A stretch of 31,340 nt of DNA from a virus. A program made the translations under genes and the position numbers. Below the pieces are notes generated by a model that ran no database searches, was not told where the DNA came from, and saw only the letters and a program-made list of their open reading frames with translations. Positions 3,077 to 31,340 of this stretch are shown one piece after another; position 1 is the first letter of the stretch; each line of letters begins with the position of its first letter. The stretch is taken from the IMG/VR virus record IMGVR_UViG_3300000101_000086. The stretch is one strand, 5' to 3'.

Positions 3077-3366
3077 TGATTGTAAGGAGATGCGCTCAAG
3101 GTCACGATGTAGTTATTCACAAGAATACGAAACCGAATATGGAAAAAATCATTAAAATGGTAGATGGATCTTATATAACAATTCAGTATCCAAACTCCAA
3201 AGATTACTTTTTAATGGTAGATGGTGAAATCGTACAAAAAAGCGATTCATTTAAAACTATTGAAAATGCATATGTCTCTGCCTGTGCAGATAAGCATAAT
3301 AATGGACATGGGCGCATCGACTATATGATTCATAAAATAATAAATAACCAGGTGGTAGATAGATGA
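3076..3366 (+). CDS. Hypothetical protein (96 aa)
   Basis: ORF coupled to the upstream gene by a TAATG overlap and to the downstream gene by a 4-nt overlap. Confidence 0.55.
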   Translation: MIVRRCAQGHDVVIHKNTKPNMEKIIKMVDGSYITIQYPNSKDYFLMVDGEIVQKSDSFKTIENAYVSACADKHNNGHGRIDYMIHKIINNQVVDR

Positions 3367-3653
3367 ATAATCCTTTAGCAAAGTTAGTAGCATGGCAATA
3401 CAAGACTGGGCAACTGGATGGTTGGACTAGTTATCACCTCGCAGCAGGCGCATTCTTTTGCAAAATCTTTCAATGGTGTGGGTTTAGCGATTTATGGTGC
3501 GTTTTAGGTGTTTTGACACTTGGTATCGCCTGGGAAATATTTGAATGGATAATCGAGAACTACCAGCCTTATAAGACAAAGCGTGCATGGGCATACAATA
3601 CAATGTCTGATATAGTGGTAGAAACTGCAATAGCATGGTGGATGGTATTATGA
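3363..3653 (+). CDS. Small integral membrane protein (96 aa, about 3 hydrophobic segments, Trp-rich)
   Basis: Hydrophobic stretches AAGAFFCKIFQWCGF, LWCVLGVLTLGIAWEIF and IVVETAIAWWMVL. Confidence 0.55.
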   Translation: MNNPLAKLVAWQYKTGQLDGWTSYHLAAGAFFCKIFQWCGFSDLWCVLGVLTLGIAWEIFEWIIENYQPYKTKRAWAYNTMSDIVVETAIAWWMVL

Positions 3654-3686
3654 ATAAAGTAATTAAGAAATTAGAAAACGGAGATT

Positions 3687-3920
3687 TTGAAGTTGTTAGT
3701 ACGTCTTATAGTATTAGTATCAAGTATGTTTATAGCGAGTAGTTGTTCCAATGGTTGGTCCGTGCTTGGTTTTGAACCAAATTTAAACGACTCTATGTAT
3801 ACATTTGTCGAGGTAATGGATCAAGATTCTACACTGCATTTTTATTCAGACAATGTTCGATTTGATAGAGATATGTGGTGTTTTACACATAGTAGATGGG
3901 AAATAGTAAGGAAGAAATGA
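3687..3920 (+). CDS. Putative secreted protein or lipoprotein (77 aa)
   Basis: TTG start with GGAG just upstream. The N-terminus MKLLVRLIVLVSSMFIASSC resembles a signal peptide with a lipobox-like ASSC. Confidence 0.45.
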   Translation: MKLLVRLIVLVSSMFIASSCSNGWSVLGFEPNLNDSMYTFVEVMDQDSTLHFYSDNVRFDRDMWCFTHSRWEIVRKK

Positions 3921-4234
3921 GTGAAAAAACTGCTAGAAGTTATCGCGCTGATGTTATCGATGACAATTTTTCTATACATCTTAATATTAAGTGGCTATTT
4001 CAAATATTATGTTTTGTTGCTGGTATTAGCTATTATGGTGTGCGTATGGAAAATCGGATTGCTAGGCTTGAAACTGAACTTATTAGTGCGGAGACAACAA
4101 TTAAAGATTTACTGGCAAAGCATACAATGGAAGAAGAGTCGAAGAGGCAAGAATTAGAAGAAAAAATTTCTTTTTATGAAAAAGAATTAAAAATTAATTT
4201 AAATCCAATGAGTTGGAAAAAGCGGAAGAAGTAA
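3917..4234 (+). CDS. N-terminally membrane-anchored coiled-coil protein (105 aa)
   Basis: I prefer the ATG at 3917 (ATGA overlap with the upstream stop, AAGGAAG upstream) over the listed 3896 start. It has a TM segment WLFQILCFVAGISYYGV, then a heptad-like region (IARLETELISAETTIKDLL) and a basic C-terminal tail (KKRKK). Confidence 0.55.
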   Translation: MSEKTARSYRADVIDDNFSIHLNIKWLFQILCFVAGISYYGVRMENRIARLETELISAETTIKDLLAKHTMEEESKRQELEEKISFYEKELKINLNPMSWKKRKK

Positions 4235-4561
4235 ATGGATATGATGGCTATATATGGCGAAGCAGGAATGATAGGAGTATGTGCTGCACTACTCATATAT
4301 TTAGTAATGAATTTGTCTAAAAAATCAGAAGCTCAAGCGGAGTCTTTAAAAAATTTAGAAGTAGAGAATAAAGGTCAGTCAGAGTCAATCAATAATATGG
4401 AAGGAATGATTATCAAATTAATTAATAGATGGAATGATAGCGATGCTGTACGAGACAGACGATATGAACAGACGATGGAAGCTATTAGCGATTTAGAAAA
4501 ACAGTTATCAAGAATGGATGGTATTATGAGCCGTATGAATGGGAATGGAAGACATGGATGA
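4235..4561 (+). CDS. N-terminally membrane-anchored coiled-coil protein (108 aa)
   Basis: The ATG immediately follows the upstream stop. It has a TM segment AGMIGVCAALLIYLVMNL followed by a charged helical region. Confidence 0.55.
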   Translation: MDMMAIYGEAGMIGVCAALLIYLVMNLSKKSEAQAESLKNLEVENKGQSESINNMEGMIIKLINRWNDSDAVRDRRYEQTMEAISDLEKQLSRMDGIMSRMNGNGRHG

Positions 4562-15644: not shown

Positions 15645-15673
15645 TTGCATAGTGTTGACAATGGTTTTAATAT
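15645..15673 (+). promoter_or_regulatory. Candidate sigma70-type early promoter (TTGCAT-17 nt-TAATAT)
   Basis: The hexamers are at 15645..15650 and 15668..15673 with a 17-nt spacer. The predicted start lies about 5 nt before the ATG at 15686, so the transcript would be nearly leaderless. Confidence 0.45.
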
Positions 15674-15684
15674 CTGTCAACACT
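15651..15684. promoter_or_regulatory. Perfect 10-bp inverted repeat AGTGTTGACA-N14-TGTCAACACT (operator candidate)
   Basis: The arms are at 15651..15660 and 15675..15684. They overlap the promoter spacer and -10 element and end 1 nt before the HTH gene start. Confidence 0.6.
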
Positions 15685-15685
15685 T

Positions 15686-15874
15686 ATGAAGCCTTTAGAA
15701 CAACATATGAGAGAGTGTGGTTTTAGTCAAAACCAATTAGCGCGTGAAATCGCTCTAGATAAATCTATGCTTTCACTAATGATGCGAGGCAAACGAAAGT
15801 TTCGTCACGAGCATAAAGTTCGTATTGCTCGTGTATTAGGTATTAAAATAGAATTTATAGAATTTCCTTGGTAA
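15686..15874 (+). CDS. Cro/XRE-family helix-turn-helix transcriptional regulator (62 aa)
   Basis: GFSQNQLAREIALDKSMLSLMMRGKR is a typical XRE HTH. It is the first gene after the tail block and sits behind the palindromic operator. Confidence 0.75.
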   Translation: MKPLEQHMRECGFSQNQLAREIALDKSMLSLMMRGKRKFRHEHKVRIARVLGIKIEFIEFPW

Positions 15875-21765: not shown

Positions 21766-21780
21766 CCGTGGTGTGGAGAA

Positions 21781-21897
21781 GCGGAATATGAAGAATATGC
21801 GGAATTTCAAATTCCGTTTGGTGTTTTTGGAACGGAATATAAATCGTGCTTGTATGTACAAGAGAGAGAGATATTCTTCATTTTCTTTATATTCCGC
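21781..21897. repeat. Iteron-like cluster: five copies of CGGAAT(A/T)T in both orientations, including the 17-bp palindrome CGGAATTTCAAATTCCG
   Basis: The copies are at 21781..21789 (+), 21799..21807 (+), 21809..21816 (-), 21832..21840 (+) and 21889..21897 (-). The palindrome is at 21800..21816 and an (AG)5 tract at 21861..21870. Confidence 0.55.
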
Positions 21898-21974
21898 TTT
21901 CTAGACACGCTAGTGATTTACGCTGAAAAATGTCCATTATCGGAGAAAAAGGATAAATCCTGCGAATGGGCATT

Positions 21975-22119
21975 TATGGCTAGTGATGGACTGCGCTGTG
22001 GCATGGTGATTGAGTGGTATGAAGACACACGAGTTTGCAATTTAGATCGGTGCTGGATTGGAATGTTGAGTCGTGACAAATTGGCGTGGCGGAACAGAAT
22101 GCTGAAGAAAAAAAAATAA
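21975..22119 (+). CDS. Doubtful small ORF (47 aa from the internal Met of listed ORF 21850..22119; Trp/Cys-rich)
   Basis: It is the only + strand ORF not overlapping the repeat cluster. There is no convincing SD and the composition is odd. It may be non-coding. Confidence 0.2.
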
Positions 22120-22128
22120 CCACGCCAG

Positions 22129-22163
22129 TATAATATAATAACCCTGAGCATATAATATAATAA
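22129..22163. repeat. Two copies of TATAATATAATAA spaced 22 bp apart, in the AT-rich non-coding region
   Basis: The copies are at 22129..22141 and 22151..22163. Confidence 0.5.
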
Positions 22164-22430
22164 GCACCAAATAATGCCAAAAAGCGCGTAAAAATGCGCA
22201 AAAAATAAATCGAAATAAAAATTTCATATAATTTATATTATGTATAATAGGATTAAAAATACAAGTTATGAGATGTAAAAAAGCATGTAAATATCTAACG
22301 TTATTTAGTCAATGTTTTGAATTATGATAGTATTTAAACGGCGTTTAATACTTATAATTGATTATAGTTTAAAAGCTCTAAATTTAGGCTTTAAAGCTCG
22401 TTAAATTGTTTTGCTTGGTTCATGTTAGAC

Positions 22431-22463
22431 CAAAAAAAAAGCCGTATAAATACGGCTCTTTTT
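22431..22463. terminator. Bidirectional rho-independent terminator (A9 - GCCGTA taaa TACGGC - TCTTTTT)
   Basis: The stem is 22441..22446 / 22451..22456. It is flanked by an A9 run (a T9 run on the minus strand) and a T-rich run. It lies between the convergent rightward and leftward units. Confidence 0.75.
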
Positions 22464-22604
22464 AGTTTGTTTTATAGTGTTCTAGTTGTCCATTGAATAA
22501 ACAAATATTAACGCTATTATGAAGTATATTAAAATTTCATACATAAACGCATTATTACAATAAAGATCCATAAAACAAAAAATAGGTCCATTAATTCAAA
22601 TAGT

Positions 22605-22814
22605 TTATTCATTTTCAGACTCATAATTTTTTAAAGCTGCAATAATGGCTCTTTTAGCTTCTTTTTTATTAGGCGCTAAAAAATACACCATTTCAAACAC
22701 AGAATACAAAACACCGTAAACAATGCAAAAAACATCAAAATTCAACCACTTTTTTTTATTTAAAAATTTATTAGTATCTTTTATTACTTTATTATATTGT
22801 TTGTGTTTATTCAT
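22605..22814 (-). CDS. Small membrane protein (69 aa), last gene of the leftward cassette
   Basis: The hydrophobic core is FDVFCIVYGVLYSVFEMVYFLA. It is preceded by the conserved AAAGAGAGGTAACAAATG. Confidence 0.6.
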   Translation of the reverse strand: MNKHKQYNKVIKDTNKFLNKKKWLNFDVFCIVYGVLYSVFEMVYFLAPNKKEAKRAIIAALKNYESENE

Positions 22815-22829
22815 TTGTTACCTCTCTTT

Positions 22830-22994
22830 TTAATTAGTATTTAAATTTAAAGATATTATTAAACTTGCTAAACTTTTAAAGGCTTCCTGTTTTTTTTGGT
22901 CATATTCTTTTAAAGTCTCTTTTTTATCTTTTAATAAATTAAAATCATCTGATAAAATCATTAAATTTAATATGTATTTTTTTTCTTTATTCAT
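22830..22994 (-). CDS. Hypothetical protein (54 aa)
   Basis: Not in the ORF track. Hand translation: MNKEKKYILNLMILSDDFNLLKDKKETLKEYDQKKQEAFKSLASLIISLNLNTN. It is preceded by the same AAAGAGAGGTAACAAATG element. Confidence 0.5.
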   Translation of the reverse strand: MNKEKKYILNLMILSDDFNLLKDKKETLKEYDQKKQEAFKSLASLIISLNLNTN

Positions 22995-23015
22995 TTGTTA
23001 CCTCTCTTTTTTTGT

Positions 23016-23591
23016 TTAATGTAAGACTAAGCCTACTTTATTTGTAGTGATCATTTTCATGTCGTTAACGCTGCAATCAGTGAAGCGCGCTTTTTTTAAC
23101 TCTTCTAAGCTGTTAAAAATTACGGCTTTTTTATCAGTGTCTTTTATTAAGTGGTCCGCCTTGCCGCCAGTAGAAAAGCAAAAAATAAAATTTTGCGGTA
23201 GATCTACTTTTTTGAATAAAGGAACGCTTTTTGTATATCCATAAAAAATTACGTTTGGATTGCCGCGCGCAATTTCTAACCATGCTTTAAGATATTTTAA
23301 GTTATAAAAATCACCGCTGGAATGTATGCGGACATATTCAATATGTTTTTTTATTAACTCGTTTTGAACTACTTTAATGAAAAGATCTTTATTTTTGGTT
23401 AGTTCATAATTACTGTGATATTTTGCCTGGACTACTGGATATTTAAACGTCCCTTTATCCGCGTAGCAAATTTCTTTGCACGTGTCCGCAAATGGACAGG
23501 TACTTACCGCGGGTAAATTAAACTCGAATAAGCGTACGTTATTTAATTTAGCGGTCTTTTTTATTTTGCTGTTTGTGTTTGTTAATATCAT
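23016..23591 (-). CDS. GP88-like protein with CX5CX3C motif (191 aa), function unknown
   Basis: LPAVSTCPFADTCKEICYADKG ... VRIHSSGDF ... FYGYTK resembles the Pfam GP88 (phage gene product 88) family layout as I remember it. It is preceded by the conserved RBS element. Confidence 0.45.
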   Translation of the reverse strand: MILTNTNSKIKKTAKLNNVRLFEFNLPAVSTCPFADTCKEICYADKGTFKYPVVQAKYHSNYELTKNKDLFIKVVQNELIKKHIEYVRIHSSGDFYNLKYLKAWLEIARGNPNVIFYGYTKSVPLFKKVDLPQNFIFCFSTGGKADHLIKDTDKKAVIFNSLEELKKARFTDCSVNDMKMITTNKVGLVLH

Positions 23592-23875
23592 TTGTTACCT
23601 CTCTTTTTTAGTTCAGTTTTAAAATCAGTAGTTAATAAACTATAAGTGTAATTTCTTGTATTATATGAATAGCCAAATATATTTATATTACACTCTTTGC
23701 AAAATTCTAAGCCGTGATCAATTGCACCGTTTAATGCGTAGTTGTATGGTATTGTTACGGTTGTTTTACGTTCTGAATTTCTACCGTTGTAAAACGTATC
23801 GGTTAATTTAATGCGCGTGCCTTGGGTATTGGTTGCGCTTAATTTTTTTACTTGTATGGTTCTTAGTTTCTTCAT
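23588..23875 (-). CDS. Hypothetical protein (95 aa), first gene of the leftward cassette
   Basis: ORF with AAAGAGAGGTAATAAATG upstream. An ATGA overlap couples it to the next gene. Confidence 0.6.
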   Translation of the reverse strand: MKKLRTIQVKKLSATNTQGTRIKLTDTFYNGRNSERKTTVTIPYNYALNGAIDHGLEFCKECNINIFGYSYNTRNYTYSLLTTDFKTELKKRGNK

Positions 23876-23931
23876 TTATTACCTCTCTTTAGTTTCTCTT
23901 TTTATTTAATGCGGCTCTCATTCCGCGGTTA

Positions 23932-23960
23932 AATGTAGTTAATTAATTAAAGCGTGTCAA
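23932..23960 (-). promoter_or_regulatory. Candidate sigma70-type promoter of the leftward cassette (TTGACA-17 nt-TACATT on the minus strand)
   Basis: The -35 element is the reverse complement of 23955..23960 and the -10 element is the reverse complement of 23932..23937. The -35 is embedded in the TGTCAACACT motif. Confidence 0.5.
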
Positions 23961-23964
23961 CACT
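23955..23964. promoter_or_regulatory. Copy of the 10-mer TGTCAACACT (operator half-site / extended -35)
   Basis: It matches exactly the right arm of the 15651..15684 palindrome. Confidence 0.5.
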
Positions 23965-24198
23965 TAATGAAATAAAATTTATCACACCAAACAAAATTAA
24001 AAAGAAATTAAACGAACTGATAAAAAAGTCAATGTTTTAAATTCTTTTTTGTGCTAAAAAAACTAAGTGTAACAATATCTAGAGTTACAGTTACAAATAA
24101 TTTCGCATAACATCTATTATGTATAATTGGAACGGATGCACCAAGGCAAAACCTCATTTTCGCCACTTACCGCGTCTTAAATTTTTTCTTTTCGTTTT

Positions 24199-24208
24199 TG
24201 TCAACACT
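24199..24208. promoter_or_regulatory. Copy of the 10-mer TGTCAACACT, 19 nt upstream of the late regulator start
   Basis: It is an exact match. On the minus strand it gives TTGACA-17 nt-TTTAAG. Confidence 0.45.
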
Positions 24209-24226
24209 CTATGCTTAATTTCACAT

Positions 24227-24568
24227 ATGGAAGAAGTTTGGTCTAACTTAACAGACGAAAATACTGATAAATGGCTACATGCTATCAACCGCGCAGATCG
24301 CTACCACCTACGCATGTTAGTTTTCCGAAGTGGTATGATTGAACCAGAACTGCGTAATCTCCAACTTGCTGCGCATAAGTTTTATGATTTGATGTCTCCG
24401 CAGGAGCTACGTGTGTTTAAGCAACGCACATTAGGTCACACTTTTGTGGATATTGCAGTGGAGATGCAAATAACAGAATCCAGCGTTAAAGAATACTGGC
24501 GCAGAACATTAAAGAAAATCGGTGATGTCATCGAAAAGACTAATAGCGATGAAGAAAAAGAAAGTTGA
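24227..24568 (+). CDS. Sigma-70 region-4-like / LuxR-type HTH regulator (candidate late-gene activator, RinA/ArpU-like position)
   Basis: LSPQELRVFKQRTLGHTFVDIAVEMQITESSVKEYWRRTLKKI is a region-4-type HTH. I prefer the ATG at 24227, because the listed 24119 start would run the ORF through the regulatory region. It lies immediately upstream of terS. Confidence 0.55.
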   Translation: MEEVWSNLTDENTDKWLHAINRADRYHLRMLVFRSGMIEPELRNLQLAAHKFYDLMSPQELRVFKQRTLGHTFVDIAVEMQITESSVKEYWRRTLKKIGDVIEKTNSDEEKES

Positions 24569-30885: not shown

Positions 30886-31340
30886 ATGGCATCATTTAAA
30901 AATTTAATTAGCACTACATCAGCACAAATATCATCTGGTGGAACAATCACTGGCGATTTGGTAATTAATGGTGATCTCCAGGTTGATGGAGGTGGTTCAC
31001 TTAGCTTTGATGAGATAGTTCAAGGTACACAAGTAATTGACGTAACCAATACAGAAGCCTTATTAGTTCGCAAGAATGATGATGGTGGAGATGTATTTGT
31101 TGTAGATACTACTAATTCACGAGTAGGTATAAATTCTACGCCAAGTAGAACATTTCAAGTGGATGGGACTGCTAGTGCTACAACTGCCACTGGTTATTTT
31201 TATACAAATGCAATTCATACTGGTGTAGATACTCAATCAGTTGTTTCTATTCGTTCTGATAATGCTAGTTCAACTGGAAATGTACTTCATGTACAAGGCG
31301 ATGGAACTGGCAATCTACTTACTTTAAGCAAAGATGGTTC
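30886..31340 (+). CDS. Tail fibre protein, N-terminal part (continues past the window end into 106..2566 of the closed genome)
   Basis: ATG at 30886 with GGAG 6 nt upstream. The frame is open to the window end and in phase with frame 2 at the window start. Confidence 0.7.
   Translation, partial: MASFKNLISTTSAQISSGGTITGDLVINGDLQVDGGGSLSFDEIVQGTQVIDVTNTEALLVRKNDDGGDVFVVDTTNSRVGINSTPSRTFQVDGTASATTATGYFYTNAIHTGVDTQSVVSIRSDNASSTGNVLHVQGDGTGNLLTLSKDG
31236..31340. repeat. Terminal direct repeat, identical to 1..105
   Basis: Direct comparison of the two ends. Confidence 0.95.

Follow-up and report, generated by a model that had tools for sequence, protein, structure and literature searches.

The virus record IMGVR_UViG_3300000101_000086, a DNA of 31,340 nucleotides analyzed here at its full length (the window), carries a reverse-strand cassette of four genes, for proteins of 95, 191, 54 and 69 amino acids, each of them preceded by a copy of the same short repeat. 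The last ~105 nt of the window (31236-31340) repeat its start (1-105), so the assembly is circularly closed and represents a phage of ~31.2 kb. The source is marine metagenomes, and the plus strand encodes tail fibre, tape measure, exonuclease, primase/helicase, large terminase and capsid genes; this is an uncultured marine siphovirus-like phage of ~31 kb. Megablast of the region against isolate phages gave no match. An earlier note, made from the sequence alone, had singled out the cassette as the sole minus-strand unit. We confirmed its four open reading frames (ORFs), which are the only credible minus-strand genes in the window; the remaining minus-strand ORFs lie inside long plus-strand genes.

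A reverse-strand cassette in a conserved slot

The cassette is located exactly where the replication operon meets the packaging/structural operon (Table 1). Genes 1 and 2 overlap as ATGA, with the stop codon of gene 1 over the start of gene 2 (GP88), and the other two gaps are 21 and 15 nt. Its GC content is 28.9%, compared with 37.1% in the rest of the window, and the claim that the unit is AT-rich holds for a part of it. Measured as z-scores relative to the 45 plus-strand genes, the 54-aa gene (16.4% GC, z = -5.5) and the 69-aa gene (23.3%, z = -3.6) are outliers, as are the spacers, whereas the values for GP88 (33.3%, z = -0.9) and for the 95-aa gene (30.9%, z = -1.6) fall inside the plus-strand spread. 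The ratio of non-synonymous to synonymous differences (pN/pS) is lowest in GP88 (0.03-0.04), followed by the 95-aa gene (0.11-0.16) and the 69-aa gene (0.17), which is purifying selection; in the 54-aa gene the differences are too few for the ratio. In the cassette and the sequence on either side of it, Rfam and tRNA scans detected no tRNA, just sub-threshold terminator-like matches.

Relatives were first collected via GP88, and then 80 loci were collected via the terminase gene, which removes the sampling bias. In the GP88-collected loci the backbone is constant, with TerL and genes s141 and s149 on one side of the reverse cassette and the primase/helicase and exonuclease genes on the other, and the partner ORFs vary. 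The 29 terminase-sampled loci that span the slot always have a gap of 1.9-3.0 kb, which is filled in every one, and in 28 of the 29 a hidden Markov model (HMM) detects a reverse-strand GP88-family gene between F10/primase-helicase and s149/TerL. The four-gene set is syntenic in the closest relatives only; it is the GP88 slot that is conserved. Around it the small ORFs change from phage to phage, and 45 cassette ORF families occur across the relatives. Those of the 54-aa and 69-aa genes (f54 and f69) are limited to near relatives and a few others, and nearly all other cassette ORFs of the relatives are without a recognizable match.

Known systems comparable to this arrangement are morons, hyperplastic regions and the promoter-stem-loop mediated shuffling in T4-type phages. 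As in these systems, a promoter and a terminator belong to the cassette itself (both are sequence predictions that hold across relatives), part of it has lower GC content, small ORFs vary among close relatives and short conserved sequences are present at the module edges. Unlike in these systems, the anchor GP88 is near-universal in the lineage and falls within the compositional range of its genome, and nothing points to lysogeny or prophage expression. The boundary element also differs from that of T4-type shuffling, as it is a translation-initiation region and not a promoter or stem-loop. The idea of an accessory or moron module thus stands for the shuffled small ORFs and falls for GP88, which is neither optional nor compositionally foreign.

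Repeats at the gene starts

The 18-mer AAAGAGAGGTAAYAAATG has exactly four matches in the window, one per cassette gene start and all on the minus strand, as had been claimed. No match occurs elsewhere in the window when three mismatches are allowed (0.17 expected by chance), and four or more matches were seen in 0/100 shuffles. Many cassette proteins share the C-terminus K(K/E)RG(NK), since their last codons lie within the repeat that precedes the following gene. The repeats extend to the relatives, in which 52 of 84 distinct cassette starts (25/45 ORF families) have a junction of type A, defined as AGAGAGG(T) of the AGAGAGGT type, or of type B, defined as CAAACGGAGACAAC, a repeat of 14-24 nt that serves one clade. 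Neither type is present at any of the 81 flanking backbone starts (Fisher p = 5e-21).

Homology breakpoints between relatives coincide with the repeat junctions. Locus L015 has an additional 58-aa gene, placed exactly between two repeats, and lacks the 54-aa and 69-aa genes from the repeat onward. L034 has a replacement of the 95-aa gene, again delimited by repeats. In distant relatives, the GP88 homology starts and stops inside both flanking repeats. The alignments fit recombination at the repeats, which may occur at these junctions. They agree with the proposal in the earlier note that the repeats could serve as recombination linkers: the repeats mark the module boundaries, and gene-precise insertions and replacements coincide with them.

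The alternative that survives best is that the repeats are merely optimized ribosome-binding sites, kept alike because short early genes need strong and coupled translation and without a role in recombination, and that cassette turnover proceeds by illegitimate recombination filtered by selection at gene boundaries, as in the classic mosaic model. We hold this explanation to be doubtful. In its favor, the repeat AAAGAGAGGTAAYAAATG holds a good Shine-Dalgarno (SD) sequence (GAGGT) 6 nt from the ATG, and the spacer after the SD differs between phages. An SD is present in 60/84 cassette genes, compared with 13/81 backbone genes, and the SD contexts of the plus-strand genes in the window are heterogeneous and often weak, in line with the earlier description of them as varied. 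Ribosome binding would not account for an identity within the genome that exceeds the SD (18/18 nt, and 34/37 nt for two copies), for the separate 14-24-nt repeat of another clade, or for insertions and replacements that are bounded on both sides by repeats, with the homology overlapping them.

A parallel is provided by the start-associated sequences (SAS) of Cluster K mycobacteriophages, a 13-bp element located 3-7 bp upstream of the ATG of non-structural genes of varied families (PMC3203893). SAS have been proposed to act in translation (PMC3203893), which likewise favors the ribosome-binding explanation. Both kinds of element are asymmetric, conserved over at least 13 nt just upstream of the ATG, and composed of an SD core with conserved non-pairing positions. 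Both keep one orientation, precede only non-structural genes of unrelated families, and are kept across related phages. They differ in sequence (AAAGAGAGGTwA in the cassette, GGGATAGGAGCCC in SAS), in host and in phage lineage. Moreover, the cassette repeats keep to a single small reverse-strand operon, where mosaic breakpoints fall on them, and ESAS-like inverted repeats were not seen with them. By this comparison, the cassette repeats are an analogue of SAS and not members of that group.

GP88 and its small partners

The 191-aa protein matches Pfam GP88 (PF17338) with E = 1.4e-38 and 133.5 bits, compared with a gathering cut-off of 24.4; the match places residues 2-174 on profile positions 2-198 of 230. 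All of its aligned homologues (49/49) match the same family, which was named for gene 88 of mycobacteriophage L5 and is found in phages, archaeal viruses and some bacteria. The CX5CX3C motif followed by YA, on which the likeness to GP88 had first been proposed, is present (CPFADTCKEICYA), with the triad formed by Cys32, Cys38 and Cys42. Invariant in the 49 homologues are C32, C38, C42, R88, G93, D94, Y100, W104, F116, T120, N134 and S140. The triad with its trailing YA is a family feature, as are the RIHxSGDFY, YGYTK and PxN....S motifs, all of them present in the window protein. It represents a short form, which ends at a conserved ...GLVLH and has no C-terminal extension.

Within the slot, GP88 itself is exchanged. 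The slot alleles form at least five subfamilies of 191-317 aa that are 19-29% identical to the window protein, and a divergent subfamily is present even in a phage with a 98% identical TerL. Across the 29 slot alleles, R88, D94, P132, N134 and S140 are 100% conserved and two of the Cys residues are 97% conserved. The Cys triad is kept by all slot subfamilies with a variable first spacing (CX6CX3C, CX13CX2C and CX17CX3C besides CX5CX3C). This exchange among at least five subfamilies within one lineage, with GP88 as the anchor of a reverse-strand hypervariable cassette, sets the present lineage apart from other GP88 lineages. With those it shares a gene position that is first or close to first in a transcription unit, beside the terminase genes.

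GP88 relatives are encoded by at least 595 stretches of the viral contig collection, and members of the family are found in phages of Mycobacterium and Streptomyces, in cyanophages and in archaeal viruses. Outside the window lineage, ~22/70 loci have GP88 in first or second position past a strand switch, divergent from the terminase genes, and the gene lies upstream of ERF and exonuclease genes; it adjoins TerS/TerL in several lineages and is near the genome ends in actinophages. Searching the protein database with a profile of aligned GP88 sequences returned GP88 proteins alone and no domain fusions. One apparent fusion, P0059, joins an ATP-cone to the C-terminal two thirds of GP88; it was set aside as a probable chimera because the Cys triad is absent and the metagenome contig is only 1.1 kb. 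In the literature on PF17338, GP88 and gp88 we found no functional study, and the "gp88" named there are unrelated genes.

The AlphaFold model of GP88 has a mean predicted local distance difference test (pLDDT) of 93.6 and an alternating beta-alpha topology with six strands. A Foldseek search of BFVD, a set of predicted viral structures, returned GP88 proteins, a Gp37/Gp68-like protein (E = 6e-7), a DUF7227 protein (E = 4e-3) and further, weak matches to radical S-adenosylmethionine (radical-SAM) proteins. The matches in the PDB were weak as well and included the radical-SAM enzymes NifB and MqnE (E = 0.3-0.4, TM 0.35-0.41) besides assorted TIM barrels. The Gp37-Gp68 family, DUF5131 (PF07505), is listed as a radical-SAM subgroup in SFLD (PMC9477430). 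Alignment of GP88 by hhalign with eight genuine phage DUF5131 proteins, recovered by tblastn, covered 129 columns with E = 0.005 and a low probability of 6.9%, and it paired CYA, hSxSD(L/F)(F/Y), TK and PxN...S in order. (Bxb1 gp68 proved not to be a DUF5131 protein.) The PF07505 HMM did not match the window GP88 protein at E <= 1 and matched one of the 49 homologues, with E = 0.03.

GP88 and DUF5131 appear to share a Cys triad ending in CYA, followed by hSxSD(L/F)(F/Y), (L/Y)TK and PxN...S with the order kept. GP88 lacks the C-terminal GGESG...KQWG half of DUF5131, and its Cys spacing is CX5CX3C rather than CX6CX2C. In the predicted structure, the GP88 triad is placed after the first strand, which is compatible with the radical-SAM location, and the "SGD" that follows beta-2 might be the counterpart of the GGE motif. 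Because of the structural matches and the profile-profile alignment of motifs, GP88 is probably a compact distant relative of the DUF5131 group. We infer that it binds metal and is a metal- or iron-sulphur (Fe-S)-dependent enzyme, which would act as infection begins and have a nucleic acid or a nucleotide as its substrate. As a separate observation, in Mycobacterium phage Panchino (L195) and Natrialba phage PhiCh1 (L202) a DUF4326 gene adjoins or lies near the DUF5131 gene, possibly a conserved pairing.

GP88 could instead be a zinc-binding structural, regulatory or DNA-binding protein, such as an early regulator or an accessory of packaging or replication. Cys triads commonly bind zinc, no catalytic family match was found, and a protein of this kind would explain the gene position beside TerS/TerL in several lineages and near the genome ends of actinophages. 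We nevertheless consider it unlikely, as the model is a barrel-like beta-alpha repeat and not a small zinc finger, and the invariant R, D, N and S are located at strand ends, as is typical of active sites. The likeness to DUF5131 and a very low pN/pS over the full length also argue for an enzyme.

The partners of GP88 are less conserved. A word-indexed search with the 95-aa protein found close relatives only. With an exhaustive HMMER search, the family grew to 49 cluster representatives; its proteins have ~80-110 aa and the motif VKYLGATNTKGSRVKITD, also given as VKxLxATNTxGxRIK. This family probably corresponds to the uncharacterized phrog_3199, matched by 26 of 43 HMMER-detected relatives (best E = 9e-8); the match of the window protein itself is weak (E = 0.016). 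Its AlphaFold2 model (pLDDT 89.9) has three strands, a helix and two strands, and Foldseek found no significant fold match in the PDB. The co-occurrence of the 95-aa and GP88 genes, which the earlier note had listed for checking, turned out to be limited. A GP88-family gene lies within 6 kb of a 95-aa-family gene in 9 of 74 viral loci, retrieved with a 9-sequence subset of the family alignment, and three of these nine belong to the lineage of the window. Besides this lineage, the two are near each other in three others: they overlap in L074, are separated by one small ORF in L077-79 and by one ORF in L088. From the GP88 side, 0/70 diverse loci carry the 95-aa family, which rejects it as an obligate partner. 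The link is recurrent but lineage-limited.

Family searches with the 54-aa and 69-aa proteins gave no family match. Homologues of the 54-aa protein (71-96% identical) occur in a few related cassettes. Those of the 69-aa protein (44-46% identical) occur in some relatives in the same slot and on the same strand, distal to GP88. Of the membrane protein that had been read in the 69-aa product, the hydrophobic 19-mer is present, with a hydrophobicity that is just moderate (Kyte-Doolittle 1.96). Compared with L013, the nucleotides of the 54-aa gene are nearly invariant, and the neighbor genes differ at 24-45% of synonymous sites, which suggests recent exchange or a nucleotide-level constraint. A distant relative (L282) carries in its reverse cassette (3207-4340) a Dcm-type C5 cytosine DNA methylase (PF00145, E = 2e-93), which can be taken as a functional hint; in another relative, L011, a DNA methylase is encoded on the backbone strand. 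PADLOC and NCBIfam returned no meaningful match for the four cassette proteins. Of the roles raised in the earlier note, neither host takeover nor anti-defence nor superinfection exclusion was supported or contradicted by these searches, the PDB or the literature.

Transcription, regulation and the origin of the cassette

The TTGACA-17-TACATT promoter and the strong T9 terminator predicted for the cassette were both found, and both are conserved. The sequence TTGACAC-N17-cTAhATT precedes the first cassette gene in many relatives, and a hairpin with T7-9 follows the last one, with stem sequences that differ between relatives. In the window, the terminator folds with -18.2 kcal/mol (z = -4.9). 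An A-run and a T-run flank its stem, and therefore it can act on both strands; it is predicted to end the cassette together with the convergent plus-strand replication operon. These elements argue for an independent transcription unit, as had been proposed.

The cassette -35 lies inside the 10-mer AGTGTTGACA (23964-23955), of which there are four exact copies in the genome. Two are part of a palindrome at the sole HTH_3 gene, located on the plus strand at 15686, and its half-sites are invariant, with a variable spacer, in 27/33 distinct relatives. The palindrome is presumed to be a candidate operator of the Cro-like protein, linking the units through the half-site common to the cassette -35. 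A further copy precedes the first late gene in a position that is kept across relatives, and 40 of 46 GTGTTGACA copies in the relatives are within the cassette/late intergenic region. Because the cassette -35 falls in the 10-mer that also makes up this candidate operator, joint switching of the cassette with the early/late programme is probable. Together with the GP88 position past strand switches in other lineages, this arrangement suggests early timing under the phage's own repressor, with the unit insulating the replication operon from the late one.

Table 1 Features of the cassette and its surroundings in the window
Feature	Position	Strand	Remarks
Gene 1, 95 aa	23588..23875	-	phrog_3199-like small-protein family
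Gene 2, 191 aa	23016..23591	-	Pfam GP88 (PF17338); conserved cassette anchor
Gene 3, 54 aa	22830..22994	-	Very AT-rich (16.4% GC); predicted helical
Gene 4, 69 aa	22605..22814	-	One hydrophobic segment, residues 28-46
Repeat copy 1 (AAAGAGAGGTAATAAATG)	23873..23890	-	
Repeat copy 2 (AAAGAGAGGTAACAAATG)	23589..23606	-	Also codes the C-terminal KKRGNK of gene 1
Repeat copy 3	22992..23009	-	Similarity to copy 4 extends over 37 nt (34/37, 92%)
Repeat copy 4	22812..22829	-	37-nt likeness to copy 3
Cassette promoter (predicted)	23932..23964	-	-35 TTGACA 23960-23955, 17-nt spacer, -10 TACATT 23937-23932
Bidirectional intrinsic terminator (predicted)	22431..22470	both	7-bp GC-rich AGCCGTA/TACGGCT stem, T9
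Palindrome AGTGTTGACA-N14-TGTCAACACT	15651..15684		Two AGTGTTGACA copies; lies over the start of the 62-aa HTH_3 (Cro-like) gene and over its promoter
Further AGTGTTGACA copy	24199..24208	-	19 nt ahead of the first late gene (true start 24227)
TATTATGTATAAT(A/T)GGA, left copy	22236..22252	+	Extended -10-like; points into the terminator; conserved in relatives
TATTATGTATAAT element, right copy	24115..24131	+	Conserved in relatives
Cys-rich 68-aa gene, GTG start	21913..22119	+	Conserved in relatives

Two exact 13-mer copies of TATTATGTATAAT, within a 36-nt direct repeat of 81% identity, bracket the cassette, and both are conserved in relatives. They would be expected if the cassette were a mobile insertion that duplicated the promoter region and is lost or gained as a unit between the direct 36-mers. 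We regard this as very unlikely, as the slot is filled in all 29 terminase-sampled loci with no cassette-less relative found, and neither a recombinase nor a homing nuclease is encoded in the unit. A second pair of repeats, D10, has its order swapped and is not significant when taken alone, and the flanking repeats resemble plus-strand extended -10 promoters; the right copy is likely the promoter of the packaging/late operon. Least credible of all is a leftward module of lysogeny or immunity type (a repressor or superinfection exclusion) in a temperate phage: the orientation opposite to the lytic genes, divergent from a regulated promoter region, and a hydrophobic segment as in some exclusion proteins would suit it, but neither cassette nor window encodes an integrase, an excisionase or a repressor-type helix-turn-helix (HTH) protein, the sole HTH_3 gene being on the plus strand, and exclusion functions find no supporting family match.

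Some observations concern the flanks. The ORF listed at 24119-24568 (149 aa) is over-extended, since the relatives start with MEEVW..., which corresponds to 24227 and a protein of 113 aa. This product of the first late gene has a sigma-70 region 4 / LuxR-type HTH, and the ATG at 24119 falls inside the TATTATGTATAAT extended -10-like element. On the other side, the stretch from the primase/helicase stop to the following gene contains a 30-nt inverted repeat (21779-21808 / 21870-21899; arms 83% complementary and separated by 61 nt). The AT-rich stretch at 22120-22604 (485 nt, ORF-free, with ATATAATATAATAA twice at 22129-22164) separates the replication operon from the cassette end and could be an origin or regulatory region. 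A small RNA between the left TATTATGTATAAT copy and the terminator is doubtful, with a fold z of -2.45 and a spacing of 40-185 nt across relatives. The minus-strand ORF at 21918..22151 (77 aa) was rejected as an extra gene, being the antisense shadow of a conserved plus-strand gene, and its "homologues" in relatives are antisense artefacts too.

A probable accessory operon of exchangeable genes

Taken together, these results lead us to a reading of the cassette, with a probability of about 0.62, as an independently transcribed, probably early, hypervariable accessory operon that is anchored by a metal- or Fe-S-binding enzyme and whose repeats serve the swapping of genes. A host sigma-70-type RNA polymerase would read the self-contained operon from the near-consensus promoter to the bidirectional terminator. 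The slot is lineage-wide and hypervariable, with GP88 constant and one to six small ORFs gained and lost around it. GP88 is predicted to have an alpha/beta, partial-barrel-like fold, distantly DUF5131/radical-SAM-like. The near-identical SD-containing repeats would give uniformly efficient, coupled translation of the cassette ORFs. They could double as a homology patch for insertion, deletion and replacement of cassette genes, because they are the sole sequence shared by otherwise unrelated cassette genes. Through the operator 10-mer, the cassette would be switched together with the early/late programme.

Several points weigh against this reading. Breakpoints at the repeats are no proof of recombination there, because conserved junctions end alignments anyway, wherever recombination occurred before selection. 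Two backbone genes of the window (14581 and 17250) have a partial AGAGAGG. ORF calling in the relatives was mechanical and restricted to ATG starts, so that noise is included among the counted "genes". For GP88, the canonical radical-SAM CX3CX2C motif is absent, a PDB sequence search with the GP88 profile gave no match, and Foldseek against the PDB returned nothing significant (best E = 0.05, TM about 0.3-0.4), to which the low hhalign probability adds. The lone AGTGTTGACA half-site at the cassette promoter may be simply an extended -35, and the timing of the cassette and the use of its promoter are predictions from sequence. The host could not be placed, because TerL is <=30% identical to that of any isolate phage.

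A more far-reaching version would have the repeats mediate an integrase-free cassette exchange, GP88 act as a new compact Fe-S/radical-SAM-like enzyme in an undescribed nucleic-acid modification or anti-defence function, and the rapid turnover of its very divergent subfamilies reflect an arms race against host defences; this we consider a long shot. What is new here is a variant of a moron-like hyperplastic operon, SAS-like repeats and the GP88 family, each of a kind already known.

For the GP88 family, widespread and without a functional study, the cassette lineage could guide functional tests. It is a clean natural experiment, because slot, promoter and terminator are fixed, GP88 subfamilies are interchangeable and partner ORFs vary. 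The cassette repeats provide a second, independent SAS-like example outside the mycobacteriophages, tied to mosaic boundaries, so that the question of whether short boundary sequences drive phage mosaicism becomes directly testable. If GP88 is indeed an Fe-S enzyme, it would represent a new compact branch of the radical-SAM-like world.

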